The position numbers and the translations under genes were made by a program. A stretch of DNA of 46,468 nucleotides from a virus (taxonomy: Duplodnaviria; Heunggongvirae; Uroviricota; Caudoviricetes). The stretch covers positions 1 through 46,468 of the IMG/VR virus record IMGVR_UViG_2617270998_000006. One strand, 5' to 3'. Of this stretch, positions 1,967 through 45,461 are shown piece after piece (within the stretch, counting starts at the first letter, position 1; every line of letters begins with the position of its first letter). The notes under the pieces were generated by a model. That model did no database searches. It had not been told where the DNA came from and saw nothing but the letters and a program-made list of their open reading frames with translations.

Positions 1967-2548
1967 TTACTGGAACGCCCGAACAATATCGGAGCTGTTA
2001 TATATCGAAGAACCGGTCAACTGGAGGTTGACGGTGTTTTTCAGGAAATGCCCATTGCTGTCCCTGGGCGCATCGAGATCGAAACTTATGTCCTGGATAG
2101 CGACATCAATGATGTTGATCCGGCGACCAATGTTTAGCGTCACACGCTCCGGGATTCGACCACCAATACTGGCATCTTTAAGTTCCGGGCTAATCATCGC
2201 TGACAATGCGGCGATAGCGCCTGAAACCTCCATGAATGGGTCAAACAAAGCGATGAAAGTTACTGGCAGCGTGAAAGTCGGCGGTGTTCCCCCCTCCCAA
2301 ACCATTAAGCTGTTCCAACGGGCCACCGACGTTGTTTCAGTACCAACCTGCGCAAAACCACTGAAAGCACCAGCAACAGACCCCATGGACATACCGGTAA
2401 ACGGCGCTTCCCAATTCTGGGCCATGTTCATTGCCGCCCCCTGGCTGATATATCCGGTAACCTGGTACTGAGAGTTCGTTAAAGTAACTTTCAGAAATGG
2501 TGATACACCGTCAGCCTGGCTGTAAACCCCATAAGGTATAGGTGCCAT
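1967..2548 (-). CDS. hypothetical phage structural protein
   Basis: 193-aa ORF tightly packed in the late operon; no recognisable motif. Confidence 0.4.
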   Translation of the reverse strand: MAPIPYGVYSQADGVSPFLKVTLTNSQYQVTGYISQGAAMNMAQNWEAPFTGMSMGSVAGAFSGFAQVGTETTSVARWNSLMVWEGGTPPTFTLPVTFIALFDPFMEVSGAIAALSAMISPELKDASIGGRIPERVTLNIGRRINIIDVAIQDISFDLDAPRDSNGHFLKNTVNLQLTGSSIYNSSDIVRAFQ

Positions 2549-2583
2549 TCAAGTTAAAGGCCGGAGTTCTCCGGCCTCCTCCT

Positions 2584-3396: not shown

Positions 3397-3405
3397 TGTA
3401 TTCCC

Positions 3406-10454: not shown

Positions 10455-10513
10455 ATTACTTTTTCCGAATTATGTGGATAGTTTTTATAAGTGATGATAA
10501 CTACCCAGGCTTT

Positions 10514-10614
10514 CCCGTCAGCACACATCCTATATCCCGCCAGCACACATTAGCAACCCGTCAGCACACATTTTTATCCCGCCAGCACACATCGTTTTCC
10601 CTCCAGCACACATC
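10514..10614. repeat. incC-type iterons (five RepA-binding repeats within the origin and repA promoter)
   Basis: Five copies of CCCGYCAGCACACAT at about 21-22 bp spacing directly upstream of repA. Confidence 0.8.
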
Positions 10615-10639
10615 GCGATACACTTCTAGGCCAGACGTG

Positions 10640-10735
10640 GCGCGGCCTGCAACGATCAGGGATCTATATGGATCTAATTGGGATCTGTATGGACCTAATT
10701 ATTGGATCTATCCAGTGGATAATGTGGATAAGTGA
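10640..10735. promoter_or_regulatory. oriR core: GATC cluster plus tandem DnaA boxes
   Basis: Five GATC sites within about 55 bp (10653-10708) followed by two TTATCCAC-like DnaA boxes (minus strand, 10716-10733); another DnaA-like box lies near 10471-10481. Confidence 0.7.
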
Positions 10736-10771
10736 AAAACCGGCCAACATAGCCGGTTGGAAGGAAGGGTA

Positions 10772-11164
10772 TTATTCTACGCTTTCGATAAGAAGACCAT
10801 GTTCATAACATTTAAGCTCATCGCCTTCGTACAGGAATTGGTATCCAATACCACCATTTTCATGGACATTAGGGAATAACTCATAACTCACTGAAGAGCA
10901 AATCACACCAATGCAGCGATCAACGCCTTCTCGTTCTTCAGTGCTGAAAAAATCCTCTTCGGTAAGGACATGAGTACATTGCTCATCAGCATAGGTCGGA
11001 AATACATGCTCGATGCAATCCGGGTGTTTTAAACCAAGCTGATCGGCAAGCTCGAAAGCACGACGGTATTGTTCAGATCCTGGCTTGCCAACAGTGATTT
11101 GCTCAATTTTGTAGATTAAAGTCGCTTTGTTGATAGTTTGCTTTACTGTTACTTTATCAGACAT
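10772..11164 (-). CDS. hypothetical protein (P1 upfA-like by position)
   Basis: 130-aa ORF immediately beyond oriR. Confidence 0.5.
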   Translation of the reverse strand: MSDKVTVKQTINKATLIYKIEQITVGKPGSEQYRRAFELADQLGLKHPDCIEHVFPTYADEQCTHVLTEEDFFSTEEREGVDRCIGVICSSVSYELFPNVHENGGIGYQFLYEGDELKCYEHGLLIESVE

Positions 11165-11175
11165 AAAAATCCCTT

Positions 11176-11508
11176 TTAGTTACCGCTAATAGCTCGGTTG
11201 TAATCATTAACGTTGCGATTCTTCCTATTAATCCCCATCAGCATCGTTTCTGTATCGAGGATATACGCTGGCAGATCATCAAAATATTCACTGCTAAACT
11301 CTGGCATCCTGCACATAAATGCACTTTTTGGGTCAGGGTGGTTAACCTTTGTCGGCGTCGGCGTTAAATTCGCTGATCGACTCCCGGAGCAACCGCTGAG
11401 TGTCAGCAGGAATACGCTGGCGAACATTACCCGCCGCAACCAGTTGTTTCTGAACTTCAGCTTTTCGTTCCATTTGCCTGTCAGCATATTTGGCTTGTTC
11501 TGATTCAT
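11176..11508 (-). CDS. putative lipoprotein (P1 mlp-like by position)
   Basis: Lipobox LLTLSGC after a hydrophobic stretch; the real start is probably the internal Met (MFASVFLL...). Confidence 0.5.
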   Translation of the reverse strand: MNQNKPNMLTGKWNEKLKFRNNWLRRVMFASVFLLTLSGCSGSRSANLTPTPTKVNHPDPKSAFMCRMPEFSSEYFDDLPAYILDTETMLMGINRKNRNVNDYNRAISGN

Positions 11509-11791
11509 TTTTCACTTCCTGGCTGTGAAAATGTTGCTCTGCTTTGTTCATCGTCTCAATGGTCTGGTTAAGATCCATTATTGACTTATCACGTTCCTTA
11601 ACAGCCTGATCAAGACTGCCAATTTTCTCCATGGCTTGCTTTAGCTGATGACGTTCCCACGCAAACCCAGCACCAACAAGTGCGCAAATCAGAACAAGAA
11701 CACCAGTAGCAGCAAGTTTCTCCTTCAAAGACAAAGCTGTTTTTAACGTAGAAAAGAATGACATGTCTTCCTCCTGAAGAAAAATTATCAA
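11342..11791 (-). CDS. putative exported or membrane-anchored coiled-coil protein (P1 ppfA-like by position)
   Basis: N-terminal hydrophobic segment then coiled-coil-like sequence; overlaps the lipoprotein ORF in another frame. The likely real start is the internal Met (MSFFSTLK...), so the 5' end is uncertain. Confidence 0.4.
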   Translation of the reverse strand: MIIFLQEEDMSFFSTLKTALSLKEKLAATGVLVLICALVGAGFAWERHQLKQAMEKIGSLDQAVKERDKSIMDLNQTIETMNKAEQHFHSQEVKNESEQAKYADRQMERKAEVQKQLVAAGNVRQRIPADTQRLLRESISEFNADADKG

Positions 11792-11803
11792 TGAAGTCCT
11801 TTG

Positions 11804-12592
11804 TTACCGTGCCGCTTTGTTTAATTCATCAAGAACAGAATCAGGAACCAAAGCGGCGACTGCGCTGGCTGTGCTGGCCTTATTTGCTGATGCTTCCGCA
11901 AGCGCGGTACCGATAGCATGGTTATAAGCAGTTATGGCTACGTTGGCGCTTTCATTCGCTCGTTCATACTGCTGTTGTAACGCAGTTGTGGGTGCTGTTG
12001 TCTGGTTGAAAACAACCCCAAACTGTTCAGTTGCTACTTTCAGAGATTCAATTTGCTCTTCTGTTAGTGCTGGTGGGGGAGTGGCAGTGCCGCCGCCTGA
12101 ACCAGAGCCTGACGAGCTTCCTGAGCCAGTGTTAAGGGTCTGGTTAATCTCCCCCATAGCAGCGACTAAACTTGATGTATTAAGCGCGTTTACAGCGTCC
12201 TCAAGCGATTTAGTAATAGTCACATCACCAATGGCAATAGAGATCGGCAGTTCTGAAACTTCTCGCTCATTAGCACGACAGTAAACATCCCAACCAATAT
12301 CGAGTTGAAGGAGCATTGACAGATCAGCATAACCAGCCAACAGGTCCGCGTGCTGAGTTGCCAGCCCTCCAATATTCGTTAAACCGGTTGCGGTTGTTCT
12401 GATCGTTGAAACATAGCTGGTAATAGTGTCGGGATAGACAATTGTATCCAGAATTAATCCGGTCAATTCTTCTGCAAGCAGTTTTGCTGTGTTAGCACTG
12501 TTTCGTGCCGATGTTATGGCACCAGGTGTTTTCATCCCACCGGCGGCGGCCAATTTTTTATATGCGGATAACTGGTAGTCTTTTTCCAGCAT
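11804..12592 (-). CDS. hypothetical protein with Gly/Ser-rich linker
   Basis: 262-aa ORF containing SGSSSGSGSGGGTATPPP low-complexity linker. Confidence 0.5.
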   Translation of the reverse strand: MLEKDYQLSAYKKLAAAGGMKTPGAITSARNSANTAKLLAEELTGLILDTIVYPDTITSYVSTIRTTATGLTNIGGLATQHADLLAGYADLSMLLQLDIGWDVYCRANEREVSELPISIAIGDVTITKSLEDAVNALNTSSLVAAMGEINQTLNTGSGSSSGSGSGGGTATPPPALTEEQIESLKVATEQFGVVFNQTTAPTTALQQQYERANESANVAITAYNHAIGTALAEASANKASTASAVAALVPDSVLDELNKAAR

Positions 12593-29850: not shown

Positions 29851-30411
29851 ATGAAAACAATCGAACAAAAAATTGAACAGTGCCGCAAGTGGCAGAAGGC
29901 AGCCAGAGAACGAGCGATCGCTCGGCAACGGGAGAAGTTGGCTGATCCGGTCTGGCGAGAATCTCAATATCAGAAAATGCGAGATACTATCGACCGCCGT
30001 ATCGCTAAACAGAAAGAGCGCCCACCAGCCAGCAAAACGCGGAAAAGCGCTGTAAAAATAAAATCTCGTGGCTTGAAGGGGAGAACACCAACGGCGGAGG
30101 AACGGCGCATCGCCAATGCTCTTGGCGCTCTCCCCTGCATTGCCTGCTATATGCATGGAGTAATATCTAATGAGGTGTCTCTGCACCATATCGCTGGTCG
30201 TACCGCGCCGGGTTGTCATAAAAAGCAATTGCCACTTTGTAGATGGCACCACCAGCATGCAGCACCGGCTGAAGTAAGAGCAAAATACCCCTGGCTGGTC
30301 CCTGTTCATGCCGATGGTGTGGTTGGAGGCAAGAAAGAATTCACCCTGCTGAACAAGTCAGAGATGGAGTTACTGGCTGACGCCTATGAGATGGCAAACA
30401 TCATGCACTAA
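29851..30411 (+). CDS. ref: Ref, HNH-type recombination enhancement endonuclease
   Basis: 186-aa ORF with basic N-terminus and Cys/His-rich HNH-like core (CIACYMHG...HHIAG...CRWHHQ); recognised as P1 Ref. Confidence 0.8.
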   Translation: MKTIEQKIEQCRKWQKAARERAIARQREKLADPVWRESQYQKMRDTIDRRIAKQKERPPASKTRKSAVKIKSRGLKGRTPTAEERRIANALGALPCIACYMHGVISNEVSLHHIAGRTAPGCHKKQLPLCRWHHQHAAPAEVRAKYPWLVPVHADGVVGGKKEFTLLNKSEMELLADAYEMANIMH

Positions 30412-30599
30412 TAAATATATTATTTTTAATGATAAATGATTGACAACTGACAAGTGACTTCAGTCAGAATCATCACACGCCCGGTACGGATGGATCCCTT
30501 TTCAAATATTCCATGGACGGCACAGTCTGAGTACCGGGCGCTACCTTCAGTTGTATTGCTAAGCCGCCGCTGGTGGCTTTTCTTTTTTGTAGGGGCGCT

Positions 30600-31241
30600 A
30601 TGGATAAGAAAATATGCGTTGTTTCGATGAGCGTCGGCAAACCGGCGTCAATGACTGCTGCATGGATCAATAACGAGCTGATAATGGCTGAGCGGACCAG
30701 CTACCCTGAACGCCGCCGCGACATGGAACTCCAGCTGCTGCGCGAATTGCGAGAAAAAGAGGAAAAGGGTTTTATCGTGCTGGTGGAAGAGGAAAACAGC
30801 TTTATTACTGGTCGAGTTGGCCAGCGTGTAAGGTTGCGCGATCCCTTCATGAACGGCAGGCCGGTACTAATTGAGGCAATGCAGATTTATAAGGAGCTGG
30901 AACGCCAGAAAGCAATCAAGTTACCGCGCAAGGAATCCGGCAAATACATCCTCCACCAAAGCATCTTCGATTCCGAACACGATAAAAAAGGCGATGAATT
31001 TTTCAACATCAATTGGAGCGAAATAACGACAGAGCATGTTCTGACGTTACTCTGTTGCTTTGCGACGGAATACAACAACGTTGCCAGCGCCGACTACATC
31101 AGGGCAATGGCTTGTGAAGTGGATAGTCGTGATGACTCATCGCTGATAGCGTCATATATAAACATCATCAAGAAAACTCAAATTATGGGATGCGCTAGAG
31201 TTCCTCAAGGAATACTCACCGGAAAGAATAATATTCTATAA
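30600..31241 (+). CDS. hypothetical protein (P1 mat-position gene)
   Basis: Start moved to internal ATG (MDKKICVV...); last plus-strand gene before the variable region. Confidence 0.4.
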   Translation: MDKKICVVSMSVGKPASMTAAWINNELIMAERTSYPERRRDMELQLLRELREKEEKGFIVLVEEENSFITGRVGQRVRLRDPFMNGRPVLIEAMQIYKELERQKAIKLPRKESGKYILHQSIFDSEHDKKGDEFFNINWSEITTEHVLTLLCCFATEYNNVASADYIRAMACEVDSRDDSSLIASYINIIKKTQIMGCARVPQGILTGKNNIL

Positions 31242-31338
31242 CCTACGAAGGTTATTTGTTACTTTCTGCGTAAACCTACAACTAACCTTCCTAAGTTAAG
31301 GAAGGTATTTATCATGAAGTGTAGACATAAGCGTATTA

Positions 31339-32379
31339 TTACATGGGCTTAACCACAACCTTTCCGTATATATCAAGTTTTGAATGTAATACGTTGACGT
31401 GAGACAATTCTTTATTCGAACTAACTTTATCTAAAATTATATTTTTATCTTTTTCAGTCATGTTATACCCTAAGGTAATTTGCTTGAATGCAGAAAAAGG
31501 AATTTTCTTTAAGTTAATTTCATGATAGTCATGAAAAACATCAGGATACTCATTTAATAGGCAGTCATCAATCGATGGAGAGACAATGCTTCCTATTTTT
31601 CTCTCGCAATCAGCCAATGGAAAAATAATTCTACTTTCATTTTCAGGAAGCCACTCTTCACCTTTTGTATAAAGAAGCCTATTAATAAAAAGCTCGCGAA
31701 CTGAATCTCGATTTAAGATCCCATGCAATGTATTATCTTTATTCTTTATATCTATATTCCTCGATGGCGCAGGATAGCCATTAAATCGCACAGCGCCTTT
31801 ATAATAGGTTACAGATGCTCTATCTTCTGGATTATAACTAACATCACACGGCCGATATATTTTGAAAAAATCGTGTGTTTCATCGAAAACTACAGCAAAC
31901 CCCTTTCCTATCGATGCATAATGAGTCCACATGTGTAGATTGCAATCACTTTTTGATAGAGAGAACACACCAAGATGACAGCTTACGGCTTCTACTAAAT
32001 AATCGTTAAGGTACGTTACTATTTCTTGGAGTTTAGATTCATCATATGAATCCATTGAGGTAAAACCTTCATTGATTAACAAGTGTGGAAAATCCTCTCC
32101 GTATCGTTTCCCGCAAGGTTTTAAATAATACTCTAACTCTTGTATAGATGGGACATAAGATGGATCTCGTTGCATTTTCTTAAATTCATTTCTAGCCCAT
32201 GCGTAATCGGCTGGTGAAAATTTATTAAAAAATGGAAGAAGTCGCGACTCACTCGACGGATCATTAAGATACTTTGGTTGCGTTGCTCTAAAGAAACCAT
32301 CCTCCAGACAAGATGTTCTAATGTGCATGCCCGGCCAAGGTTTATCCATATAACTCTCGCCTATATATTTAACTAACAC
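31339..32379 (-). CDS. DUF2971-like protein
   Basis: 346-aa ORF, visibly AT-rich; N-terminal FxxxxPxxxNDPxxE-like segment (FFRATQPKYLNDPSSE) and central VFSLS...HMWTHYASIGKGFAVVFD resembling the DUF2971 signature. Confidence 0.5.
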   Translation of the reverse strand: MLVKYIGESYMDKPWPGMHIRTSCLEDGFFRATQPKYLNDPSSESRLLPFFNKFSPADYAWARNEFKKMQRDPSYVPSIQELEYYLKPCGKRYGEDFPHLLINEGFTSMDSYDESKLQEIVTYLNDYLVEAVSCHLGVFSLSKSDCNLHMWTHYASIGKGFAVVFDETHDFFKIYRPCDVSYNPEDRASVTYYKGAVRFNGYPAPSRNIDIKNKDNTLHGILNRDSVRELFINRLLYTKGEEWLPENESRIIFPLADCERKIGSIVSPSIDDCLLNEYPDVFHDYHEINLKKIPFSAFKQITLGYNMTEKDKNIILDKVSSNKELSHVNVLHSKLDIYGKVVVKPM

Positions 32380-32431
32380 TGTATGTCGATCCTGTTGTTT
32401 AAGCCCATATCATATGGGCTTTAAATGATTA

Positions 32432-32680
32432 TTAATCAGCATTCAGAAGCAATGCGTTATCTATGATGATCTGCTCCCATTCTTCGAATGCCCGATCGCG
32501 GACACCTTGGGGAACACTGTTAGTTTTGAAATCGACGACCGTCCGCCATTTCCCGTCCGGGCGGTACATGCGCAGAGCTTTACTTCCCCCTTCCCTGCGC
32601 ACCTCAACGTTATGCTTGTCAGCAAACTCTTGTAATGCTCGTAGCGTCCCATGCTTTACTGTGTAGTATCGCTTTTTCAA
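32432..32680 (-). CDS. hypothetical small protein, weak HicA/YcfA-like resemblance
   Basis: 82-aa ORF; segment LQEFADKHNVEVRREGGSKALRMYRPDGKWRTVVDF resembles HicA but lacks the GSHH histidines. Confidence 0.3.
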   Translation of the reverse strand: MKKRYYTVKHGTLRALQEFADKHNVEVRREGGSKALRMYRPDGKWRTVVDFKTNSVPQGVRDRAFEEWEQIIIDNALLLNAD

Positions 32681-32778
32681 GTTTTCTCTCCAGCCTGTGC
32701 CAAGGCTTCAACTTCCAAATCGTAAGACTCAAACTCATAGTCCTGGTCGTCAACTTCTTCAGGCACTGGCAGTAAATG

Positions 32779-33117
32779 CTAGGCTGAGTATATCTGACCA
32801 TTATCAAAACGCTCCTGGCTGTAGAGCGTCGCGGCTATGAGTGTTAGCGCCGGGCGGTCATAACGGTAAATTTTGCGAACGTCACGGTCAACGAGACGAC
32901 CGAAATTACCATAACCGCGCTCCAGTAATAATTTTTTAATTTCCGGCCAGTATGGGCCATAGCTGCGGTACAGACGGGGATTTTTCAGTAATCGCCCGCG
33001 TAGCCCTGACAGGAAGAAATCAACGTATTCGTCTTCTGTCTTTCCTAACAACGCTGTACGGAGTACCGCTTCAAGATATGTTTTATTCGGTTTTATTGTA
33101 TCAGATAGTGTGGCCAT
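32779..33117 (-). CDS. hypothetical protein
   Basis: 112-aa ORF co-oriented with neighbours; no motif recognised. Confidence 0.4.
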   Translation of the reverse strand: MATLSDTIKPNKTYLEAVLRTALLGKTEDEYVDFFLSGLRGRLLKNPRLYRSYGPYWPEIKKLLLERGYGNFGRLVDRDVRKIYRYDRPALTLIAATLYSQERFDNGQIYSA

Positions 33118-33150
33118 ATTATGCGACGCCCGGCGAACCGGGCGCTCCTG

Positions 33151-34518
33151 TTATGCGTATTGTTGGATGACGGCCAGAACGTCCGCCACGTTGTGTTTTG
33201 TCTCGATAATCCACCAGTTACCCGGGAAATCGCTGTTCTTTGCCTTCGCTGGCAGCCAGCGAGCGCCGAATTTCGCCTTGATTGCGTCTTTCGCACGGAA
33301 AAGAATGCCTTTCATGCCGGACGCCTCCTGAAGCCCAAATACCTCGCCAGCGGCGAATTTTGGTGCGTACATCATCTTCAGGTCGGCGGTGGATACGCGA
33401 TAATTCAGACCAAGAGACTGAGCTATGCTGGTGGCATCACCCTGTATTGATGATAACTCTTCTTGTTTCTCGTTTCTGGCGGCAATTTCTTCCTCCGTGA
33501 TGTTGCCAAGGGCCAGGTTTATCCGATCAGCGTCGGCCTGTTTCTCTTCATCGGTGCGCCCGGCAAGAACCGTGTTAATTCTCTGCAATATCTCCACATG
33601 ATTCTTGCGCATGCTGAGCAATTCCGGCGTAACATCGTTAAGAGCCACCAGCCCAAGGATGGCAAGGTCGGAAAACATTGATACCAGGTTGTAGGTCATG
33701 CGATAGCTGAGTTGGCCATAGGCTGATGGCAACTGCACCGCATCCATTTGATAGGCATCCATAAATTTAGAGCCGTCGTTTACGACATCCGCAATTGCCG
33801 GTGTGATTTTCCCTGTGGTGGCGGCCTCCCTGATTGCTGTTACCCACGATTGAGTCAGCGCGGCGACTGCATGATTCAGATTGGCTTTCCGTTCTGCTGC
33901 AATGCGCGCGCTTGCTGCGTCCATTGCCTGCTTGATCTCGTCTTTATTGCTGTAAATGCCAATGGGACCAAACTGTGTTGTGGTGATCTCATAATCTGAC
34001 GCCCGGAACTCATTGGTACCGAAAATGGCATTGGTGACCTCAAGTTCAGAATCCCCGTTACGAGTAGCCCCCTGACTTGTTTTCTCCGGCATTTTTGCGA
34101 TCGCATCCGCTATTTTCTCCTGAATTGCTTCAGGGGATAGCGTATCTCCGTATGACGCGATTACATCGCTATAATTGGATCCAAACAGTTCAGTCAGGAA
34201 TACTTCTGCCAAACGGACCTGGCGGTTATTCCCTTCCGACATCATACCAAGCACCCATTTAGCAATTGACGACTTCAGCGCGCCGTCACGGCGATCCGGG
34301 TAAACCGCATGCTTCAGTGGGTCCGTATAGGTACCAACAAAATCAATGCTATAGCCTGACTCTGTAGTCTGAACGCCGTATGAGTCAGTGATTTTGATCA
34401 TGCCGCGCTGCTGGAAACGGTAGAAATCGTCACAGGAAATGATGTCGTTAATCCCGGCGATGGAGACGCCACCACTGATTTTCTGCATAACAGCATCTTC
34501 ATCGGGAGTTACATCCAC
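33151..34518 (-). CDS. hypothetical protein (455 aa), downstream partner of an overlapping two-gene operon
   Basis: Start overlaps the upstream gene stop by 10 nt; no catalytic or nucleotide-binding motif recognised. Confidence 0.5.
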   Translation of the reverse strand: MDVTPDEDAVMQKISGGVSIAGINDIISCDDFYRFQQRGMIKITDSYGVQTTESGYSIDFVGTYTDPLKHAVYPDRRDGALKSSIAKWVLGMMSEGNNRQVRLAEVFLTELFGSNYSDVIASYGDTLSPEAIQEKIADAIAKMPEKTSQGATRNGDSELEVTNAIFGTNEFRASDYEITTTQFGPIGIYSNKDEIKQAMDAASARIAAERKANLNHAVAALTQSWVTAIREAATTGKITPAIADVVNDGSKFMDAYQMDAVQLPSAYGQLSYRMTYNLVSMFSDLAILGLVALNDVTPELLSMRKNHVEILQRINTVLAGRTDEEKQADADRINLALGNITEEEIAARNEKQEELSSIQGDATSIAQSLGLNYRVSTADLKMMYAPKFAAGEVFGLQEASGMKGILFRAKDAIKAKFGARWLPAKAKNSDFPGNWWIIETKHNVADVLAVIQQYA

Positions 34519-35300
34519 CTGTTATCCAGCGTCTTCACATCCCAGTTACCCGATTTGGTGCCTTTGAAGGTAAAGATGATCTCCACGTCTGCGCGCTGGC
34601 TGTCGAAGTCCAGCGACTTAATGCGAACGATATCACCGGCACAATCGTAGTATTGGCCTACACGCCATGAGCGATCGCCGATAACAAGGAACTCACTCGC
34701 ATGGTTAACCAGGTCAGGATCAACATCCAGAATGCCTTTATTTATTGCATCCTCCACCAGCGGGCGCAGGCGTTTGATATCCGTCGCGGCCTTCTGAGTA
34801 CGGTTCAATAATTTCTCATAGCGGGAGATGGCTTGAGAGATATTAGCCTTGCGCTGAATGGCGCTTTTCAACGACGCGCGATACTGTGCTAACAACATAC
34901 GGTCTGTGTGATGGACACTCCCCCAGCGGGCCTTCCAGTCTGCGTTATCAGCTGCTTTGGCCATTACCGCCTGTTTGAATTTAGCTACCTCGGCGGTGGT
35001 CTTTTCAAATTCCGCTTTGCTTCGCTCTAATTCAGCGGTAAGTACCTCCACATCCTCACCAGCTGCGTGCTGCGCCTTGATGTAGTTCTGAAGGTCGATA
35101 GTAGCCTGTTCTTTCTGGCGAGCGCGTTGCGCGGCTTTCGCCTTATCCATTTGAACCTGCATCATTGCCAGACGTTCACCGTCATCCTTCGCGGTATACA
35201 TCTGCATTTCGATCATATCATTGGCGTCGGCGTTCTCCATTTCTGACTTATCTGAACGGAGGATATCGGAGATCCTGGGCTTCGTTTGGGAAACGTACAA
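34509..35300 (-). CDS. hypothetical coiled-coil protein (about 263 aa)
   Basis: N-terminal half Lys/Ala/Glu-rich and coiled-coil-like; start uncertain (ORF track uses a TTG that lies inside a 16-bp palindrome; first ATG is 20 codons in). Confidence 0.45.
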   Translation of the reverse strand: MYVSQTKPRISDILRSDKSEMENADANDMIEMQMYTAKDDGERLAMMQVQMDKAKAAQRARQKEQATIDLQNYIKAQHAAGEDVEVLTAELERSKAEFEKTTAEVAKFKQAVMAKAADNADWKARWGSVHHTDRMLLAQYRASLKSAIQRKANISQAISRYEKLLNRTQKAATDIKRLRPLVEDAINKGILDVDPDLVNHASEFLVIGDRSWRVGQYYDCAGDIVRIKSLDFDSQRADVEIIFTFKGTKSGNWDVKTLDNRWM

Positions 35301-35309
35301 TATTGTACG
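35294..35309. promoter_or_regulatory. perfect 16-bp palindrome CGTACAATATTGTACG (candidate operator)
   Basis: Overlaps the 5' end of the coiled-coil gene; the half-site ACGTACAATA recurs at 35478-35487. Confidence 0.3.
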
Positions 35310-35478
35310 GTTGCGCTATTGCGGTAGGGTGTACTCCAACGCTATACGGTCTTTGGCAGACCTTTAGGGAAATGAGATAAGCTAAATGCGATAAGAGAAA
35401 AGCAATAACTTAAAGGCAATAGCTGATTACGATAAATCAATCAGTTACTTATCAGTATCGATTAAAAAATGCTCCTAA

Positions 35479-35925
35479 CGTACAATAATTTCCGTTTCCC
35501 AAACCGCCCCCTCCGATCCCGCGCCGGTCTACCCGCAGACGCATCTGAGTTTTCTGGCAAACGTCTATAACCAGAAGGCGCGTGAGTTCTACCATTGTTA
35601 TGGCGTACAGTTGATCGACGCGGCGTATGAAGCGCATCAAGAAAAGGGCGATGTGCCTGTGATGATCACCAAGCATTGCCTGCGTTTTGCCTTTAATCTT
35701 TGCCCGAAACAGGCGAAAGGTAACATCAAAAGCTGGAAAGCGACGCCAATGCAACTGGTCAACGGTGATGAGGTACTGACGCTGAAATTTGGCTGTCGCC
35801 CGTGTGAAATGCACGTTATCGGCAAGATTAAAGATCACATTCTTAAAATGCCGCTGCCGGGCAGCGTGGTGGGTTCCGTCAGTCCGGAAGATCCGATGAA
35901 AACGCTGCCGAAGCGTAAACCTTAA
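35479..35925 (+). pseudogene. 3' fragment of a chromosomal-type gene (possibly U32-family peptidase-like), 5' end missing
   Basis: Open frame starts abruptly after an in-frame TAA with no plausible start or SD for the first 40 codons; GC-rich, unlike the flanking AT-rich DNA; family guess from the C-terminal sequence only. Confidence 0.4.
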
Positions 35926-36029
35926 TCCTTTGCGACATCAGCCCGGTGGCGTTTACCGGGCCTTTGTGTTGGTATTTATTTCCGCCGGTTAACGCCTGGC
36001 CCAAAGCCGACATCCGGCGAGGTGTCCGC

Positions 36030-36158
36030 TTAATGCGCTTTAAACCCCGCCGCAGTCATGAGCAGGCGAAAAAACATGCCCACCGCCGCCAGCGCCAACA
36101 CGCTGCCGCCCCAAAGGATGACCAGCCACATCAGGCGTTTCCAGAGAGAATGTTGCAT
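36030..36158 (-). CDS. small membrane protein (42 aa), putative oxidase accessory subunit
   Basis: MQHSLWKRLMWLVILWGGSVLALAAVGMFFRLLMTAAGFKAH; ATG overlaps the subunit II stop, as for CydX/AppX-type peptides. Confidence 0.4.
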   Translation of the reverse strand: MQHSLWKRLMWLVILWGGSVLALAAVGMFFRLLMTAAGFKAH

Positions 36159-37168
36159 CAGTGATACCCCTCGCCATGTTGCACTTTGCCGCGAAACACA
36201 TAGTAACTCCAGAAGGTGTACACCAAAATCACCGGAATGATGAGCAGCGCACCGACCAGCATAAACCCCTGACTCTGGGCGGGGGCGGCTGCCTGCCAGA
36301 GGGTAACCGAAGGCGGAATAATGTGCGGCCAGATACTGATGCCCAGGCCGCTGAAACCAAGGAAGATTAGCCCGAGCGTCAGCACAAACGGAAACGTGTG
36401 GTTTTCCGGACGACCCAGTGTGCGCCATAACCAGACGCTGAACGCGATCACCAGCACCGGAACCGGCAGCAGATAGCCCAGGTTGGGAAGCGTAAACCAA
36501 CGGTCGGCGATCGCCGGATGCGCTAACGGTGTCCAGAGGCTGATTATCGCAATTGACAACAGCAGGGCCAGCAGCAGTTTTTTCGCGACGCTGCGCATTT
36601 TATCCTGAAGCGGATTTTCGCTTTTCATCACCAGCCAGGTTGCGCCTAAGAGCGCATAGGCAACGACCAGTCCGACGCCACAGAACAGAGTGAAGGGGGT
36701 TAACCAGTCGAACGGCCCGCCGCTGTAGCTGCGACCGGTCACCGGGAAACCGTTGATCACTGCGCCAACCACGATCCCTTGGGCGAAGGTAGCCAGAATC
36801 GACCCGCCGAGAAAAGCATGGTCCCAAAATGGGCGGTGGGCTGGCGTGGCCTTGAAGCGAAACTCGAAGGCCACGCCGCGAAAAATCAGTCCGATCAGCA
36901 TCAGCGTCAACGGAATGGTCAGCGCATCGATAATAACCGCATAGGCCATCGGGAAAGCCCCAAACAGCCCCGCGCCGCCCAGCACCAGCCAGGTTTCATT
37001 ACCGTCCCACACCGGCGCGACGCTATTGACCATCACATCACGATCCTCTGCGTTTCGTGTGACAGGAAACAGAATGCCAATACCCAAATCGAATCCATCC
37101 ATCACGATATACATTAGCGTGGCGAAAACGATGATCACAAACCAGATAACCGATAAATCAATACCCAT
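36158..37168 (-). CDS. cytochrome bd-type quinol oxidase subunit II (CydB/CioB-like)
   Basis: 336-aa polytopic membrane protein with CydB-like N-terminus (VMDGFDLGIG); start overlaps the subunit I stop. Confidence 0.85.
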   Translation of the reverse strand: MGIDLSVIWFVIIVFATLMYIVMDGFDLGIGILFPVTRNAEDRDVMVNSVAPVWDGNETWLVLGGAGLFGAFPMAYAVIIDALTIPLTLMLIGLIFRGVAFEFRFKATPAHRPFWDHAFLGGSILATFAQGIVVGAVINGFPVTGRSYSGGPFDWLTPFTLFCGVGLVVAYALLGATWLVMKSENPLQDKMRSVAKKLLLALLLSIAIISLWTPLAHPAIADRWFTLPNLGYLLPVPVLVIAFSVWLWRTLGRPENHTFPFVLTLGLIFLGFSGLGISIWPHIIPPSVTLWQAAAPAQSQGFMLVGALLIIPVILVYTFWSYYVFRGKVQHGEGYH

Positions 37169-38568
37169 TAGCGATGTGCCTTATGTTGAGAATCGAGGAC
37201 GGCGGCGGAAAGCGGCCTGGCGGGTGTGCCCGGCGGCGGCGCGGAATCATCTTCCAGCGGGCCTTTGCGGATCAGGCGAATCATATAGCTGTAGCCGACG
37301 CCAAAGACTGAGCTGTAGACAACAAAGAAAGCGAGCAACGAAATGCTCATATGTAAATCGCCGTGGGCCGACACCGCGTCGGCAGTACGCTGTAAACCGT
37401 ACACCACCCACGGCTGGCGTCCGACCTCAGTGGTCACCCAGCCCGCGAGAATGGCGATGAGCCCCGAGGGTCCCATCCATAGCGCAAAGCGCAGGAACGG
37501 GCGCGAGGTGTAGAGGCGCTGCCTGTAGCGCAGCCAGAGCGCACAGAGCCCTAGCAGGATCATTAACATGCCCAGGCCGGCCATGATGCGAAACGACCAG
37601 AACACGATCGTCGAGTGAGGGCGATCCTCTTTGGCGAATTCTTTTAGCGCCGGAACCTGTTTATCCAGACTGTGCGTCAGGATCAGGCTTCCCAGCGCCG
37701 GGATCGCCAGTCCATAGCGGGTGCGTTCCTGTTCCATATCCGGCCAGCCAAACAGCAGCAGCGGCGTGGGCTCACCCGGCGGGTTTTCCCAGTGACCTTC
37801 AATCGCGGCGATTTTGGCTGGCTGATGTTTCAGGGTGTTCAGCCCATGCATATCGCCGATTAACGCCTGCACCGGCGCGACAATAAGCGTCATCCACAAC
37901 GCCATGGAAAACATCGTGCGAATGGCTGGCGTTGCGTTGCCGCGCAGCAGATGCCAGGCTGCCGAAGCGCCGACAAACAGCGCGCTACTGAGAAATGCGG
38001 CGACGGACATATGCAGCAGCCGATAAGGGAACGAAGGATTGAAGATAACGGCGAACCAGTCCACGGGCACAACCTGGCCGTTGACGATCTCAAACCCCTG
38101 CGGCGTTTGCATCCAACTGTTAGACGCCAGGATCCAGAAGGTGGAAATGAGGGTGCCAAGCGCCACCATGCAGGTTGAGAAGAAATGCAAACCCGGACCG
38201 ACTTTATTCCAGCCAAACAGCATCACCCCGAGGAATCCGGCTTCAAGGAAGAAAGCGGTCAGCACCTCATAGGTAAGCAACGGCCCGGTAATACTGCCTG
38301 CGAATTCCGAAAAACCGCTCCAGTTGGTGCCGAACTGATAGGCCATCACCAGACCGGAAACCACGCCCATGCCGAAATTTACGGCGAATATTTTTGACCA
38401 GAAGTGGTACAACGAGCGCCAGACCGGATTTTTGCTTTTTAGCCAAAGGCCTTCCAGCACCGCCAGATAACTGGCAAGCCCAATGGTGATCGCCGGAAAG
38501 ATAATGTGAAATGAAACTGTAAAGGCGAACTGGATCCTTGCCAGGTGATACGCATCAAGACCAAACAT
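37168..38568 (-). CDS. cytochrome bd-type quinol oxidase subunit I (short Q-loop, CioA-like)
   Basis: 466-aa membrane protein with CydA-like N-terminus (RIQFAFTVSFHIIFP); about 50 residues shorter than E. coli CydA/AppC, suggesting the short Q-loop subtype. Confidence 0.85.
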   Translation of the reverse strand: MFGLDAYHLARIQFAFTVSFHIIFPAITIGLASYLAVLEGLWLKSKNPVWRSLYHFWSKIFAVNFGMGVVSGLVMAYQFGTNWSGFSEFAGSITGPLLTYEVLTAFFLEAGFLGVMLFGWNKVGPGLHFFSTCMVALGTLISTFWILASNSWMQTPQGFEIVNGQVVPVDWFAVIFNPSFPYRLLHMSVAAFLSSALFVGASAAWHLLRGNATPAIRTMFSMALWMTLIVAPVQALIGDMHGLNTLKHQPAKIAAIEGHWENPPGEPTPLLLFGWPDMEQERTRYGLAIPALGSLILTHSLDKQVPALKEFAKEDRPHSTIVFWSFRIMAGLGMLMILLGLCALWLRYRQRLYTSRPFLRFALWMGPSGLIAILAGWVTTEVGRQPWVVYGLQRTADAVSAHGDLHMSISLLAFFVVYSSVFGVGYSYMIRLIRKGPLEDDSAPPPGTPARPLSAAVLDSQHKAHR

Positions 38569-38691
38569 GCCTGACTCCGCATTAAAAATTGATTCAGCGC
38601 AATTCTAAGCGTGTGAGGCAATGAGGGGCAGAAACAGAACAGACATATTTAACCATAACAGTTTGCAAATCGTTGTGAATTTTATTCACTG

Positions 38692-39150
38692 TTATACACT
38701 GCGAGGCTCACCTGCATTGACCGACGAGAAACCAGAATAAAAAATACCAGCGTCTGGCTGAACAACTTTGCGAACAGATCGCCTCTGGCGTCTGGCGACC
38801 CGGCGACGCGCGGCCTCTTTGCGGTGGGAGTCGGAGTCCATTGCGCTGGCTACGCGCCCGGCAGCAACGAAGTCATAAAGCATATCCTGTGCATGCTCAT
38901 CTACGGTGTCATCACGTAGCGGAATGCGGGCGTATTGTTCTTTGGTAAACACGACTGCACGGTAATTTGAGTGCGGGATTGCATTCATACGTGCCGTGAT
39001 AGTGGCTTCATCTGCCAGTTTAAGGGCATCGCGCATAACTGGAGTGCCATCAGTACCAAGAACAGGAGCACCTCCCACGCTAACGCGCGGGCCCCGAATC
39101 TCACCGTTCTGAAACCACAACAAAAAAACATCAGGAATAAAAAACACCAC
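38692..39150 (-). CDS. hypothetical protein, possibly a gene fragment
   Basis: 152-aa GC-rich ORF upstream of the oxidase operon; no motif recognised; may be a spurious frame in GC-rich DNA. Confidence 0.2.
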   Translation of the reverse strand: MVFFIPDVFLLWFQNGEIRGPRVSVGGAPVLGTDGTPVMRDALKLADEATITARMNAIPHSNYRAVVFTKEQYARIPLRDDTVDEHAQDMLYDFVAAGRVASAMDSDSHRKEAARRRVARRQRRSVRKVVQPDAGIFYSGFSSVNAGEPRSV

Positions 39151-39648
39151 ACAAACACAGCACTGTACCCCCCCTCATAACTGAAAAGCGCCGCCGCCCC
39201 CGCCCGAAGGGCGGGAACAACATCGCTTTTAATTATGAATGTTGTAAGTACATTGTCATCGCTGTCAGTCTTCTGGCTGGAAGTCCTCAGTACACGCTCG
39301 TAAGCGGCCCTCACGGCCCGCTAACGCGGAGATACGCCCCAACTTCGGGTAAACCCTCGTCGGGACCACTCCGACCGCGCACAAAGGCTCTGTCATGGCT
39401 GAAAACGGGTATGGCTTAGCAGGGCCGGGGGTGGGTAAGGTGAAATCTATCAGTCAGTACCGGCTTACGCCGGGCTTCGGCGGTTTTACTCCGGTATCAT
39501 ATGAAACAACAGAGTGCCGCCTTCCATGCCGCTGGCGCGGCATCAGGACAACTGAAGAGTGACGGCGCACATTAACATCAAACAGACTTGTTAAGCAGTC
39601 TTTCAGGGTGTAATCTGAAGACCTGTTAAATAGTCTCAGAGGTGTGTT

Positions 39649-39900
39649 ATGCCCAGTATCATTTTGTCTGACACCAGTGCAAGCGTCAGTGAGCTGAAAA
39701 AAAATCCGATGGCAACTGTCAGTGCCGGAGAGGGGTATCCTGTTGCCATTCTTAACCGGAATCAGCCAGCATTCTACTGTGTCCCTGCTGAGCTCTATGA
39801 AAGAATGCTTGATGCCTTGGATGACCAAGAGCTGGTAAAACTGGTTACTGAACGCAGCAGTCAGCCTCTGCATGATGTGGACCTGGACAGTTATTTATGA
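39649..39900 (+). CDS. RelB/StbD-family antitoxin (Phd/YefM fold)
   Basis: 83-aa ORF (MPSIILSDTSASVSELKKNPMATV...) resembling the plasmid StbD/RelB antitoxin; stop overlaps the toxin start. Confidence 0.75.
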   Translation: MPSIILSDTSASVSELKKNPMATVSAGEGYPVAILNRNQPAFYCVPAELYERMLDALDDQELVKLVTERSSQPLHDVDLDSYL

Positions 39901-40184
39901 CTTATACAGTAAAATTCCGGGATGATGCACTGAAAGAATGGCTCAGACTGGACAAGACCATTCAGCAGCAGTTCGCAAAAAAACTGAAAAAATGCAGTGA
40001 AAATCCTCATATAGCTTCTGCAAAACTACGTGGATTAAAGGACTGCTATAAAATCAAACTTCGCGCATCAGGTTTTCGTCTGGTTTATCAGGTTATTGAT
40101 GATATGTTAATTATTGCGGTCGTCGCAGTAGGTAAACGTGAACGCAGCAACGTTTATCATCTCGCCAGTGAACGGATGAAATAA
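39897..40184 (+). CDS. RelE/StbE-family toxin (ParE/RelE superfamily)
   Basis: 95-aa ORF (MTYTVKFRDDALKEWLRLDKTIQQQFAKKL ... FRLVYQVIDDMLIIAVVAVGKR) with typical RelE-family organisation. Confidence 0.75.
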   Translation: MTYTVKFRDDALKEWLRLDKTIQQQFAKKLKKCSENPHIASAKLRGLKDCYKIKLRASGFRLVYQVIDDMLIIAVVAVGKRERSNVYHLASERMK

Positions 40185-41043
40185 TATCCTGGTCAGCACT
40201 CTTTCTTACCTGCTTCCATTTTTTCAGTGATTCTTTTCCTGCATGCAGAAAAAAAGCCTACCCTGTGGGCAGGCATAACAGACAATCGCACAGTCAGTGT
40301 TGAAATTAATGATGTCACGCATTATACCCGGTGGATACACAAACCATCCCTGCAAATGCACTGGCATCCTAATCAACGTCTGAAACAACTGCAATGGCCG
40401 GACCTGTGATTTCAGAGAAAGTTATTATGTTTATTGAATATAACCGAAGTGATAAATAAAAGTATTATCACCTTTAATATTTATGCTTATTGCGTGGTTT
40501 TATCTGGTTATATAAAGCACAGATGTTCTTATTATTTTCTGAAAAATAACCATATGGATCGATTTCCCCCACCCAGCCGAAGCGGTTCGGCTCGTTCGGC
40601 GTGTCGTCGACACTGAAGCGCTTATCCACTTCGTTCCAGCGGTAAGAGTTGTCGCTGTCGCTGACGAATGCCATCGGGTCGCTAAACAGCGTGATCCGCC
40701 ATGCGATCAAAAAGCGTAAGTGTTTCCGACAGACGAGCCGGTGAAAAAAGTGGTGTGTCTGGCAATACAGGCATCGTCCCCGAAATGGACGATGCCGTTG
40801 AAGGACTGGGGTATGGCAATAAGCCGCTTTATTATCGGATTCAGTGACCGCCTGGACGGTTACTTTTGAGAAAAGGCATTTACACACAATCCTAAACAGA
40901 CTCCTATATTTCAGATTTTGTTATCAACGCATTTCAAATCTCTTAGAAATCATTACTGTCGTCATATTTTCCGAGGCAGCTCACCACCTAACCATGTCTT
41001 ATCAACAATATTTTGTGAAGGATATTTATAATGTAAAGACACA

Positions 41044-44000
41044 TCAGAAACGATATTCCACACTCAACATGGCAGATGTATTATGGTATCCATGTTCTCC
41101 AAGTTGAATGCCTGCATCAGCCCGGAATGCTACTTCTGGTGTTATCATTCCCACAACACCACCATTTATTTCTCCGATATCACGCGCACCATCCTGGTAT
41201 ATACTTACACCATTCATACTGGTGCCGAAAACACGACTATTGTGCAACCAGTGTGCCTCCACAAATGGTCTGAACGGAACCGCATACCGCGTATTTTTAC
41301 CGTTTTTGCTGGTAAGCCATGTTCTTGCTCCCAGGCGGGTGAGAATATTTCCGTTACCGGTATTTTCAATACTGGTTCCGTTACTTTCATGATATTTGTC
41401 TGATTTTACATTCATCCGGACAACCTGAAGCTGCGGCTGAACATACCATTCATGACTTCCCTTGTAATTGTCGGTAAACTCTCCAGCCTTCCATGAATAT
41501 CCTGCTTCCAGAGATACCGTAAACCCTTTTGACTTCCATGACTCAGCAGGCAGCCGTTCTCCATTTATATGATTATCAAACCAGCTGTATTGCAGCCAGC
41601 TATCAAGATAAGAACCATTGTGTGTTTCATCATTGGCATACCATGTTGCATAAAGACCCGCTGTGTATCCATTCATTCTTCCTTCCGAATGGTATCCGGT
41701 GCTCAGGGCATTCGTACTGTTATTATTATGACCATAGCCAGCCATCATACCTGTATGCCAGCGATCGGTACCATTCAGGCTCCACTGAGCTATATCTCCC
41801 CCTATTAACACAACGTAGCTATTCCCCCGGGTTCTCAGCTGACTACTGTTGTCACGCCAGCGATTATGTTTTCCTTTATTATACATCCAGATACCTGCTT
41901 CATTTTCTTCTCCTGTCATGTGGCTGATATACAACTCCTGTCCCTGTCGTTCATACAGATTCGTTACAAACAGATTATTTGCAGCAGCAATACTGGCAAC
42001 ATAGCTACCTGCCTCAGGACGCAAATTATTATCATGGCTTTCCGGTACAGCTTCAGGTTGTGGTACAGGAATGTCTTTTCTGCTAATCAGATACCAGTTA
42101 GTGCTGTTAATCCCCTGACCACGTTTCAGTATGTAATCATAAGCTCCGGCTGTAATACGTTCCGTCTGAATGAATTCAGCATTATCAGCATTGCCACTGA
42201 CGTGAATCACTTCAATCCCATTAAGTGTCTCTGCACCAGTACCACCGGCCTGAGTAACAGCGACACGGGTACGGCCACTGGCATTACCTTTAATCACCAG
42301 ACGATCTGTTTTCGAATTGTCACCACCTGTTTCTGTCTGGAGGAGAATAAGTCCATTTCTGCCAGTGTAATTCCCTCCGACAGTCAGTATATTACCCGGC
42401 ATATATGTAGTGAGATCGACTATACCACTATTGCTCAGATTTCCTGCAACGCCCCCAAACCCGGAGAGTTTGCCCTGCTCTTCAACAATGACCTGGTTAC
42501 TGCCGAGCATCACCGGTGAATCTGCGTTCCCCAGTATCACTGTCCCCTGAATAATATCTGTCATCCCGGTCCATTTTGCGTTATCGCTAATGTTCAGTGC
42601 ACCTGCTCCCGTCTTGCGAACATTACCATAACCACTGATATTGTTGGTAAGCTGCCATGCTGATGTACTGTTCAGAGTTAATGTGCCATAGTTATCAACA
42701 AAGGCTGTCCCCAGATTATCAGCCGTGGATACAGCCAAATGAGCCCCCTTATTCACGGTAAAAACACCGGAAAAATTACGATTATTACCCGTTATATCAA
42801 GCATTCCCCCATTTATGTTCAGAGAACCATCCCCTGCAATAGTACCTGCAGATTCTCCTCCATTATTCAGTATCAGACTTCCGCCATGAATGTTCAGCAC
42901 AGAGCCTGCAGCCGTCAGTAGTTTGCTTATTGTCTGAGGATACCCATTCATATCCAGTTCTGCGCCACGGGATAAATATAAATACTCAGTCCGACCAAGA
43001 GCATCAGGTGCAGCAAGAATTAATACGCCAGATTTAACCTCTGTATTTCCTGTATAATTGTTTGTTGCAGAAAGTATAAGAGTACCATTACCTGATTTTG
43101 TCAGACTTTTGCCGTCCCAGCCATCATATAATAAAGGTGAAAGATTATCGGAAAGAGAAACGCCTATGTTCAGAGTGGCATCTTTTTCTATATTAAAGGT
43201 TCCATATCCCATCCCTTTTGTATTATTCCATCTCAGCATGGATATCAGTTTGTTATCGTCGTCATTTAAAGACGTATAAACATAACTTTCAGCACCTTCT
43301 GTCAGTAATACATTGTATTGTACAATGTGACTATTATCAGCGATCGAGATACCTGTGTCTGACGACAATAATGTGTAATAGTCCTGAGTCCAGTTCTTAA
43401 TTGATGTGTCTATATTAAGCCATGAATCACTTTTTAATGTAATAGTATTTGCGTGAACATTAGCATTTCCTACAGACAGGTTCATAGATGCGTCTTCATC
43501 AATACTTATATTTCCGTTAAAAATGGAGTTCTTGCCTGACAGATAAACAGATGAGCCATTCCCAATCATTAGCCCACCATTAATTGCTGTTGCGTTATTG
43601 ATGTTTTTAATAATTAATTCATTTGTACCATTAACAGGTATACTAGCTAGTTTAATATCACCATTAATCACAGAATCTGAATAAATATCTAATGAATTAT
43701 ACCCGCCAGAAAAAATTATTGATGTATTATAAGCATCTTTTTGGCTATTATATAATCCTGAAAGATTACCATGATTATTAATATGGATATCTTCTCCATA
43801 AACAGAGCAACCACCGTCGGGGCCATATCCCCCCTGAACAATACCGTTATTATTCAAAGTGATTTGATTTCCAGAAATAGCATCTCCCCCTTGTTTTATT
43901 CCATATCCTCCAGATATTATGTTGTCGTTAGTAATGAAAAGATTACTACCATTAATACCATCACCACCGTTTACGCCATTACCGCCCAATATTCCTCCGG

Positions 44001-44541
44001 AATTATGCACTGTAATATTGCTACCGGTTACACCGGAACCACCTGTCCCACCTACATCATCACCTCCGTATATACTTCTGTAATTATCAACTATAATATC
44101 ATCCCCGCTTAACCCTGCACCTCCGCTACTTCCTGAGCCACCAAGACCATTACCCCCATATACATTTCTGTAATTGTTTATAGATATTTTGTTGCCACTA
44201 ACAGCAATTCCACCATTATATCCATCTCCTCCCCAAACACTACCATTATTATTTAGCGTAAAGTTTTCACCGTAGACACCTGCACCACCGATTGATGTAT
44301 TGCTTGTTCCTCCTTTGATGTTAATACTGCTTTCAACAGATAGTATATTTTGAGTATAACTTGTTTTATACGGCACGCTGATATTAAGCGCCGCGTTTCC
44401 ATCAACACCTGTAATACTCCTGGTTATACTTTCAGGTATACCATTACCATTCAGTTGTATTGTTTGCGCACCAGAAAAATGAGACTGCACAGAATAAAGT
44501 ATACTGACCAGAAATTGTAAAATTCGTATATTCTTATTCAT
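41044..44541 (-). CDS. autotransporter (type Va secretion) adhesin-like protein
   Basis: 1165 aa: signal-peptide-like N-terminus, Gly-rich passenger repeats (GGxGxxG, NNYR..GG), C-terminal barrel-like region ending in an aromatic residue (...SVEYRF); visibly AT-rich. Confidence 0.75.
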   Translation of the reverse strand: MNKNIRILQFLVSILYSVQSHFSGAQTIQLNGNGIPESITRSITGVDGNAALNISVPYKTSYTQNILSVESSINIKGGTSNTSIGGAGVYGENFTLNNNGSVWGGDGYNGGIAVSGNKISINNYRNVYGGNGLGGSGSSGGAGLSGDDIIVDNYRSIYGGDDVGGTGGSGVTGSNITVHNSGGILGGNGVNGGDGINGSNLFITNDNIISGGYGIKQGGDAISGNQITLNNNGIVQGGYGPDGGCSVYGEDIHINNHGNLSGLYNSQKDAYNTSIIFSGGYNSLDIYSDSVINGDIKLASIPVNGTNELIIKNINNATAINGGLMIGNGSSVYLSGKNSIFNGNISIDEDASMNLSVGNANVHANTITLKSDSWLNIDTSIKNWTQDYYTLLSSDTGISIADNSHIVQYNVLLTEGAESYVYTSLNDDDNKLISMLRWNNTKGMGYGTFNIEKDATLNIGVSLSDNLSPLLYDGWDGKSLTKSGNGTLILSATNNYTGNTEVKSGVLILAAPDALGRTEYLYLSRGAELDMNGYPQTISKLLTAAGSVLNIHGGSLILNNGGESAGTIAGDGSLNINGGMLDITGNNRNFSGVFTVNKGAHLAVSTADNLGTAFVDNYGTLTLNSTSAWQLTNNISGYGNVRKTGAGALNISDNAKWTGMTDIIQGTVILGNADSPVMLGSNQVIVEEQGKLSGFGGVAGNLSNSGIVDLTTYMPGNILTVGGNYTGRNGLILLQTETGGDNSKTDRLVIKGNASGRTRVAVTQAGGTGAETLNGIEVIHVSGNADNAEFIQTERITAGAYDYILKRGQGINSTNWYLISRKDIPVPQPEAVPESHDNNLRPEAGSYVASIAAANNLFVTNLYERQGQELYISHMTGEENEAGIWMYNKGKHNRWRDNSSQLRTRGNSYVVLIGGDIAQWSLNGTDRWHTGMMAGYGHNNNSTNALSTGYHSEGRMNGYTAGLYATWYANDETHNGSYLDSWLQYSWFDNHINGERLPAESWKSKGFTVSLEAGYSWKAGEFTDNYKGSHEWYVQPQLQVVRMNVKSDKYHESNGTSIENTGNGNILTRLGARTWLTSKNGKNTRYAVPFRPFVEAHWLHNSRVFGTSMNGVSIYQDGARDIGEINGGVVGMITPEVAFRADAGIQLGEHGYHNTSAMLSVEYRF

Positions 44542-44787
44542 ACTGTTTTTTCTTTAGTGATGCATTTTTTATCAACCACACAAGCACATTATTTCATTGA
44601 TACTAATCACATCAGGATGAATGTTTTTTCTCAATAGAAATAAGTGTCTTTATTCCTTACCAATTTATTCTGGTTATTCCTCTTATCCAGACGTCTCGTG
44701 ATACTCCCTGTATTTATTATAGAGTATATATATGTACTGCGTTTAAATCATGAAGACGACAACCTGTTTTACATAAATTATTCCTAA

Positions 44788-45461
<674 letters not shown>

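Follow-up and report, generated by a model that had tools for sequence, protein, structure and literature searches.

A protein of the DUF2971 family (346 aa, GTG start) is encoded on the minus strand, at 31339..32379, of a P1-like phage genome, and this raises two related questions: how did an AT-rich gene come to lie between the P1 genes mat and lxc, and what does it do there? The gene call is supported by the open reading frame, by Pfam and PADLOC matches, by alignments and by a structure model; throughout, we call the window the whole stretch of DNA that was analysed (46,468 nucleotides). Part of the answer is already known, given that the gene is annotated in RefSeq and found in about 90 plasmids, and that a fold has been proposed for the family, one member of which is validated in defence. 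Judging from its position, its neighbours, the precedent of its family and its conserved residues, we suggest that this is probably a stand-alone anti-phage gene borne by a prophage-plasmid.

An exchangeable slot between mat and lxc

The gene is enclosed by P1 genes. On one side lie ref (29851-30411) and mat (30573-31241), and on the other lxc, the C1 co-repressor gene (32432..32680, minus strand; recognised by phrog_2160 and by P1 annotation), which is co-directional with the DUF2971 gene and is accompanied by ulx and by the 3' end of darB. In alignments to P1, RCS47 and 673R5, homology ends at 31123 and restarts exactly at the lxc stop at 32432; therefore, the exchanged block spans 31124-32431 (1308 bp, 35.5% GC). 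It contains a diverged 3' end of mat, a terminator-like hairpin, the DUF2971 gene and a spacer of 52 nt. The recombination breakpoint falls inside mat, whose last 39 codons (31124..31241, plus strand; GC 0.364, or 36%) are a homologous version roughly 50% identical to the Mat of P1 and RCS47. The donor of the block was probably a diverged mat-bearing element; a search of PLSDB for copies of intermediate similarity gave nothing beyond homologues in Aeromonas, at 68%. The hairpin (31285..31306), detected by a consensus scan as ACCTTCC-N8-GGAAGGT with a T-rich tail behind it on the plus strand, stands within the swapped block between the convergent mat and DUF2971 genes and is a putative terminator.

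The contents of this position vary widely across P1-type genomes. Type III res/mod genes occupy it in P1 and P7 (EcoP1I in P1), nothing does in RCS47, and a RelA/SpoT protein of 373 aa is found in SJ46, a split copy of a RelA/SpoT gene in 673R5, a PIN_12 protein in JL22 and an EAL plus AraC pair in Ro157c2; the DUF2971 gene is in the slot of none of these seven genomes. We therefore consider the slot a site of exchangeable accessory genes, most of them with defence functions. The separate acquisition proposed in the original prediction is borne out here, as the compared genomes hold other cargo, or no cargo at all, between mat and lxc. The RelA/SpoT gene is the only one of its kind in SJ46, the phage from which the validated CapRelSJ46 comes (PMC9712102). 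In 673R5, the CapRel-like gene is annotated as two ORFs (182 and 180 aa, positions 2037-3136 of that locus) versus one of 373 aa in SJ46 (positions 1272-2393 of its locus), a split that may reflect a frameshift or a sequencing error.

CapRelSJ46 and the EcoP1I res/mod genes thus share the mat-lxc position of the DUF2971 gene, and both are validated prophage-encoded defences (PMC9712102). CapRelSJ46 is moreover a single protein that acts by abortive infection without a separate antitoxin. Both as proteins and in their chemistry, which is tRNA pyrophosphorylation for CapRelSJ46 and DNA cleavage for EcoP1I, the two systems are unrelated to the window protein, and the CapRelSJ46 gene lies on the opposite strand, convergent with lxc, whereas the DUF2971 gene runs in the direction of lxc.

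Intact copies of the block, with an identity of at least 98.9%, were found in 88 PLSDB plasmids, whose hosts belong to Escherichia, Salmonella, Shigella and Klebsiella. Among 5426 complete E. coli genomes it occurs in 61-63, nearly always plasmid-borne, versus 674-699 with the lxc-ulx backbone, so that about 9% of P1-type elements carry the DUF2971 allele. This distribution points to one acquisition and subsequent spread. Within the phage collection the gene was present in two records only, GenBank 'phage P1' MH422554.1 and MH445380.1, and is unannotated in both.

The description of the gene as the end of a cargo array was loose: a large cargo block does lie nearby, from 35276, but about 2.8 kb of P1 backbone (32432-35275, consisting of lxc, ulx and the 3' end of darB) separates it from the slot. 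Two genes of this backbone are damaged. The reading frame of ulx (32779-33117) is cut short at codon 113 (W113 to stop), while Ulx is 146 aa long in plasmid NZ_AP025206.2 and in P1, and darB is a remnant (from 33082), with P1 homology stopping at 35275 and an isolated 269-bp fragment at 38798-39066. From the darB remnant and fragment, the Dar anti-restriction cluster therefore looks inactivated here. The non-P1 cargo itself (35276-45000) includes DUF2474, cydB, cydA and phd/relE, and also an AT-rich autotransporter of 1165 aa (41044-44541).

Base composition

The gene had been described as more AT-rich than the backbone, and the difference is clear: it has 35.6% GC versus 47.6% for the window, a value as low as is reached by only 1.1% of 1011-bp windows, and a GC3 of 0.29 versus 0.46-0.56 in ref, mat, lxc, ulx and darB. 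The change in GC falls at the homology breakpoints of the swapped block. Relatives of the gene have 34.5-36.3% GC in every context, with a surrounding GC of 40% to 54.5%; AT-richness is thus a property of the family. Since low GC is common to the relatives, AT-richness alone does not date the acquisition. The same range is kept by relatives in other phages even where the locus has 51-55% GC, that is, it is maintained across hosts.

A small subfamily of DUF2971

The Pfam profile PF11185 (DUF2971) matches the window protein over the whole of the profile (1-89) with 28.4-28.6 bits (E 4e-6), over the curated gathering threshold of 22 bits, and also matches 48 of 48 aligned relatives, which confirms the predicted membership. 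An NCBIfam scan of the protein returned no matching model. Through a word-indexed search we retrieved 76 full-length relatives (about 350 aa, 36-54% identity), whose hosts are Klebsiella, Serratia, Vibrio, Shewanella, Salmonella and others. An exhaustive profile search returned about 40 representatives with a cut-off of E<=1e-30; relaxing it to E<=1e-10 raised the number to 1363, and E<=1e-3 gave about 8800, the last figure counting representatives at 50% identity. The about 40 close members versus the 8800 distant ones therefore indicate a small subfamily within a very large family, and the window gene belongs to a small gammaproteobacterial subfamily of DUF2971.

The original prediction held that DUF2971 proteins have no defined mechanism, a statement that is now out of date. 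The family has been classed as ADP-ribosyltransferase (ART)-like, near DarT, AbiGi and Tox-ART-HYD1, with a strictly conserved Tyr (motif II), an ExE (motif III) and large helical inserts between the core strands (PMC12522546). Furthermore, one DUF2971 protein of Lactococcus, Aristaios, has been validated as an abortive-infection system made up of a single gene, and it acts by blocking transcription of the phage (PMC11381338, PMC13064643). Aristaios (316 aa, plasmid pUCCL641_199; PMC11381338) comes from a different phylum than the hosts of the P1-type gene; compared by description only, the two have in common the DUF2971 domain and the single-gene organisation.

The identical gene on a plasmid is represented in RefSeq by WP_032219104.1 (336 aa, 'DUF2971 domain-containing protein'), for which the ATG at 32349 was called as the start. 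This ATG is probably 10 codons short of the conserved N-terminus. We dropped it as the start, given that the relatives share an MLVKY N-terminus upstream of it: MLVKY(Y/L)G is the first stretch of every one of those from 14 other loci, and the window gene read from the GTG begins (M)LVKYIG. K4 and Y5 are conserved in at least 90% of an alignment of 78 sequences that reaches down to 23% identity. In the AlphaFold model of the 346-aa protein, residues 2-6 form a beta strand and the mean pLDDT is 96 across residues 1-10; overall, the model is better than that of the 336-aa form (pLDDT 93.7 vs 89.1; pTM 0.88 vs 0.83). Both sequences and model thus favour the GTG, which appears the better start, and the originally predicted coordinates of the gene (31339-32379) are upheld on account of this N-terminal conservation and of the model. 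An AGGA at 32390..32393 (minus strand), 10 nt upstream of the GTG, is a putative Shine-Dalgarno-like sequence. The RefSeq start codon probably needs correction.

Conserved residues and the ADP-ribosyltransferase question

Numbered on the 346-aa protein, nine residues are invariant in the 78-sequence alignment (R31, D40, Y154, G160, Y182, K239, E248, R250 and G304), and a further set is conserved in at least 90% of it (besides K4 and Y5, T33, Q34, P35, N39, E44, W151, H169, W243, E246, P294 and H327). The motif II Tyr and motif III ExE of DUF2971 are present as Y154 and E246-x-E248, within the Pfam match, and the conserved R31-x-T33 / Y154 / E246-x-E248 pattern fits the ART-like signature published for the family (PMC12522546). 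In the model, K4-Y5 on strand 1 would provide an alternative motif I.

Structural comparison gave DarT as the best match to the model, and a weak fold match. DarT (PDB 7yk3, 7omv, 8baq), of the H-Y-E clade of ARTs, is an enzyme with the ART fold that modifies DNA by ADP-ribosylation and takes part in phage defence. The differences are considerable: the window family has Arg or Lys in motif I versus His in DarT, and the window protein, with its helical insert of about 80 residues (56-135 in the model) and further inserts, has 346 aa versus about 210. Searches by other means did not strengthen the match. Foldseek of the model against PDB and BFVD viral structures yielded nothing significant, profile searches of the PDB with the family found no chain at E<=10, Pfam PF14487 (DarT) did not match the window protein, and hhalign against DarT profiles, built from 3 sequences or from 29 sequences of a dedicated homology search, gave probabilities of 0.1-0.2%. 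With other tools, similarity of this kind to known ART families has been published (PMC12522546). Both hhalign runs paired the C-terminal 'KKIPF...ITLG-helix-SHV' of the family with 'KAFPW...EEIAV-helix-strand' of DarT; this pairing is not significant, and it agrees with a topology shared with DarT. The locus also differs from DarTG toxin-antitoxin systems, which are defined by a DarT domain and an adjacent macrodomain protein, DarG: there is no PF14487 domain, and the neighbours are mat and lxc instead of a DarG partner.

Distant members of the family (about 300 aa) can be aligned with it over their whole length and have the same C-terminal pattern, and therefore the protein seems to consist of one domain with inserts and not of an enzyme plus a sensor domain. 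We had considered whether the last 90 residues might form a sensor domain of their own, and this alignment ruled it out.

Our reading of the protein as an ART draws on the weak fold match, on the motif pattern and on the published classification. If it is a defence gene, we see even chances that it would encode an NAD+-dependent ADP-ribosyltransferase acting on nucleic acid or on the transcription apparatus. It could instead be a defence gene of another chemistry, whose conserved D/E/K/R/H residues form a different active site, such as that of a nuclease or of a nucleotide-directed hydrolase, in which case the resemblance to DarT would be a generic alpha/beta similarity; this we regard as unlikely.

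Genomic contexts of the relatives

The original prediction had also stated that the family recurs in contexts resembling defence islands, and the loci of the relatives agree well with this. In three P2-like loci (Salmonella and two viral contigs) the relative is the sole gene, on the opposite strand, in the interval from gpV to gpS, and on another P2-like contig it lies between GpA and the portal gene GpQ. The GpA-GpQ interval and the tail-gene interval of P2 have been described as defence hotspots (PMC13586616). The Serratia relative is at the cargo end of a prophage, where it adjoins smpB and a PDC-S64 protein; that of Klebsiella is in an islet and adjoins a HEC-04/AbiL-like ATPase; and a further one adjoins a reverse transcriptase (RVT_1, 507 aa). 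Within their loci, these neighbouring ORFs are at 11113-12156 (PDC-S64 protein), 9785-11314 (ATPase) and 2406-3929 (reverse transcriptase).

When all ORFs within 4 kb were compared against each other across 15 loci, no conserved partner gene emerged except in three syntenic Psychrobacter genomes. The DUF2971 gene is thus a stand-alone unit. In PADLOC, four models of PDC-S31 match the window protein (best E 3e-16; PDLC04994, 57.5 bits; PDLC04990, 51.8 bits) and no other family does. PDC-S31 is, like the window gene, a single-gene candidate. Two points temper the match as support for defence: coverage by these models is partial, e.g., residues 120-183, and PDC-S31 is itself only a computational candidate, for which we found no published test in the literature. 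Nor did we find a paper testing the window protein.

The palindrome upstream of the gene and its transcription

A perfect palindrome, AAGCCCATAT-C-ATATGGGCTT (10+1+10, 32401..32421; 13-nt arms at 32398-32424), lies in the spacer of 52 nt between lxc and the gene, 10 nt past the lxc stop and 21 nt ahead of the GTG. It is present as first written, about 3 nt off the position then given. Other perfect 11-nt inverted repeats are present in the window, and the palindrome is statistically unexceptional. Transcribed from either strand, it is predicted to form an RNA hairpin of about -12 kcal/mol, and the spacer RNA folds moderately better than its shuffles (z = -2.2). It does not look like a classical terminator, as the sense strand has no U-tract and a terminator scan made no call there; Rfam on the module returned only a chance miRNA match (E 0.89).

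A scan for consensus sigma-70 promoters found none. In P1, the -35 of the annotated P2mod promoter falls within lxc and the -10 overlaps the stop codon of that gene, and the corresponding hexamers of the window, ACGCAT and TAATAA(T), are weak, which counts against expression of the gene as we envisage it. We also dropped a guessed promoter downstream of the palindrome (TCGACA-16-TATATA), which would span the true GTG start. The stretch from palindrome to GTG is too short to contain a promoter, so transcription would start within or upstream of lxc. Since the adjoining ulx and darB are damaged here, transcription from upstream may be altered.

The palindrome had been proposed as the operator of the gene. 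A DNA operator bound by a dimeric regulator would explain the perfect 10+1+10 symmetry, and a transcript starting at the P2mod-like promoter would place the palindrome at about +1 to +21. Several observations argue against this, apart from the weakness of those hexamers and the lack of promoter room downstream. No regulator gene is encoded within the 1308-bp module; half-sites in the window are not above chance (6 found vs 3.3 expected), which gives no indication of a regulon; and no comparable palindrome precedes the gene in 14 of 14 relatives in other contexts. Moreover, other alleles of the slot have hairpins of their own at the same position, those of RCS47 and 673R5 being GC-rich, unrelated and directly after the lxc stop, while P1 has none there. 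An operator is accordingly a rather unlikely reading to us, and the palindrome is probably a transcribed intercistronic or leader stem-loop, which might act in attenuation, in RNA stability or in the binding of a protein. As a separate observation, AAGCCCATGT at 31341-31350 (minus strand) nearly repeats a palindrome arm and coincides with the final codons of the DUF2971 gene, stop included, so that similar 8-9-mers flank the ORF on both sides; their overall count is not above chance.

Proposed function and alternatives

We lean towards a stand-alone anti-phage gene in the mat-lxc slot, most likely ART-like, that arrived as a single AT-rich block. The 1308-bp block was brought in by recombination, with one exchange inside mat and the other where lxc ends, and the DUF2971 gene takes the place of the EcoP1I restriction-modification genes in the exchangeable slot, where it would provide superinfection exclusion or abortive infection. 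Its product would most likely be one ADP-ribosyltransferase-like domain with large helical inserts. Upon infection by a foreign phage, it would use NAD+ to modify nucleic acid or the transcription machinery, with the result that phage gene expression is halted and the cell sacrificed. The protein probably has no antitoxin, and either a low level of expression or auto-inhibition would keep it inactive. A transcript from within or upstream of lxc would express the gene in the lysogen, with the palindrome forming a stem-loop in the short leader RNA between the two cistrons.

The gene could also serve P1 itself, either as an enzyme of host takeover or counter-defence, comparable to the Alt and Mod ADP-ribosyltransferases of T4, or as a lysogenic-conversion or virulence effector. 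Its vicinity to the Dar anti-restriction genes ulx and darB speaks for such a role, as does the prediction that about 18% of DUF2971 proteins are secreted effectors (PMC12522546). However, the sequence has neither a signal peptide nor a hydrophobic N-terminus, host-protective systems fill the same slot in other P1-type phages, and relatives are found in non-phage islets beside other defence candidates. P1 does not need the gene either, given that only about 9% of P1-type elements have it, and we find a role in the life of P1 itself improbable. AT-rich DNA is frequently silenced by H-NS in enterobacteria. This, together with the lack of a clear promoter and the damage to the neighbouring ulx and darB, would be expected if the gene were silent or decaying cargo that has no current function here. 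Such decay is at odds with an ORF that is intact and nearly identical across the 88 plasmids, with the presence of every residue invariant in the family and with a highly confident structure model, and we deem it very improbable.

We thus return to an anti-phage gene as the preferred reading. Its most detailed version, which we put forward tentatively and as a whole think rather doubtful, is that of an antitoxin-free ART acting on nucleic acid through an unusual Arg/Lys-Tyr-Glu site, inhibited within its single polypeptide until a phage cue, serving as a drop-in replacement for restriction-modification and linked in expression to the P1 immunity modulator lxc through a shared transcript and the leader stem-loop.

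Implications for P1-type elements and for the DUF2971 family

The slot that holds the DUF2971 gene has earlier yielded EcoP1I and CapRelSJ46. A DefenseFinder survey of P1-type plasmids reported type III R-M, dGTPase, PrrC and CapRel, with the DUF2971 gene absent (10.1101/2025.09.12.675607); surveys based on DefenseFinder omit this gene, so the defence content of P1-type plasmids is under-counted. In the family at large, about 8800 representatives include one validated defence member, that of Lactococcus, and no biochemistry. E. coli, Salmonella and Shigella are natural hosts of the P1-type copy, which is found in about 1% of complete E. coli genomes. This copy is thus a convenient handle on whether DUF2971 proteins are ARTs, which targets they have and how they are tolerated without an antitoxin. 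If the reading as an antitoxin-free ART is true, this would be the first E. coli-tractable member of a family of about 8800 clusters.
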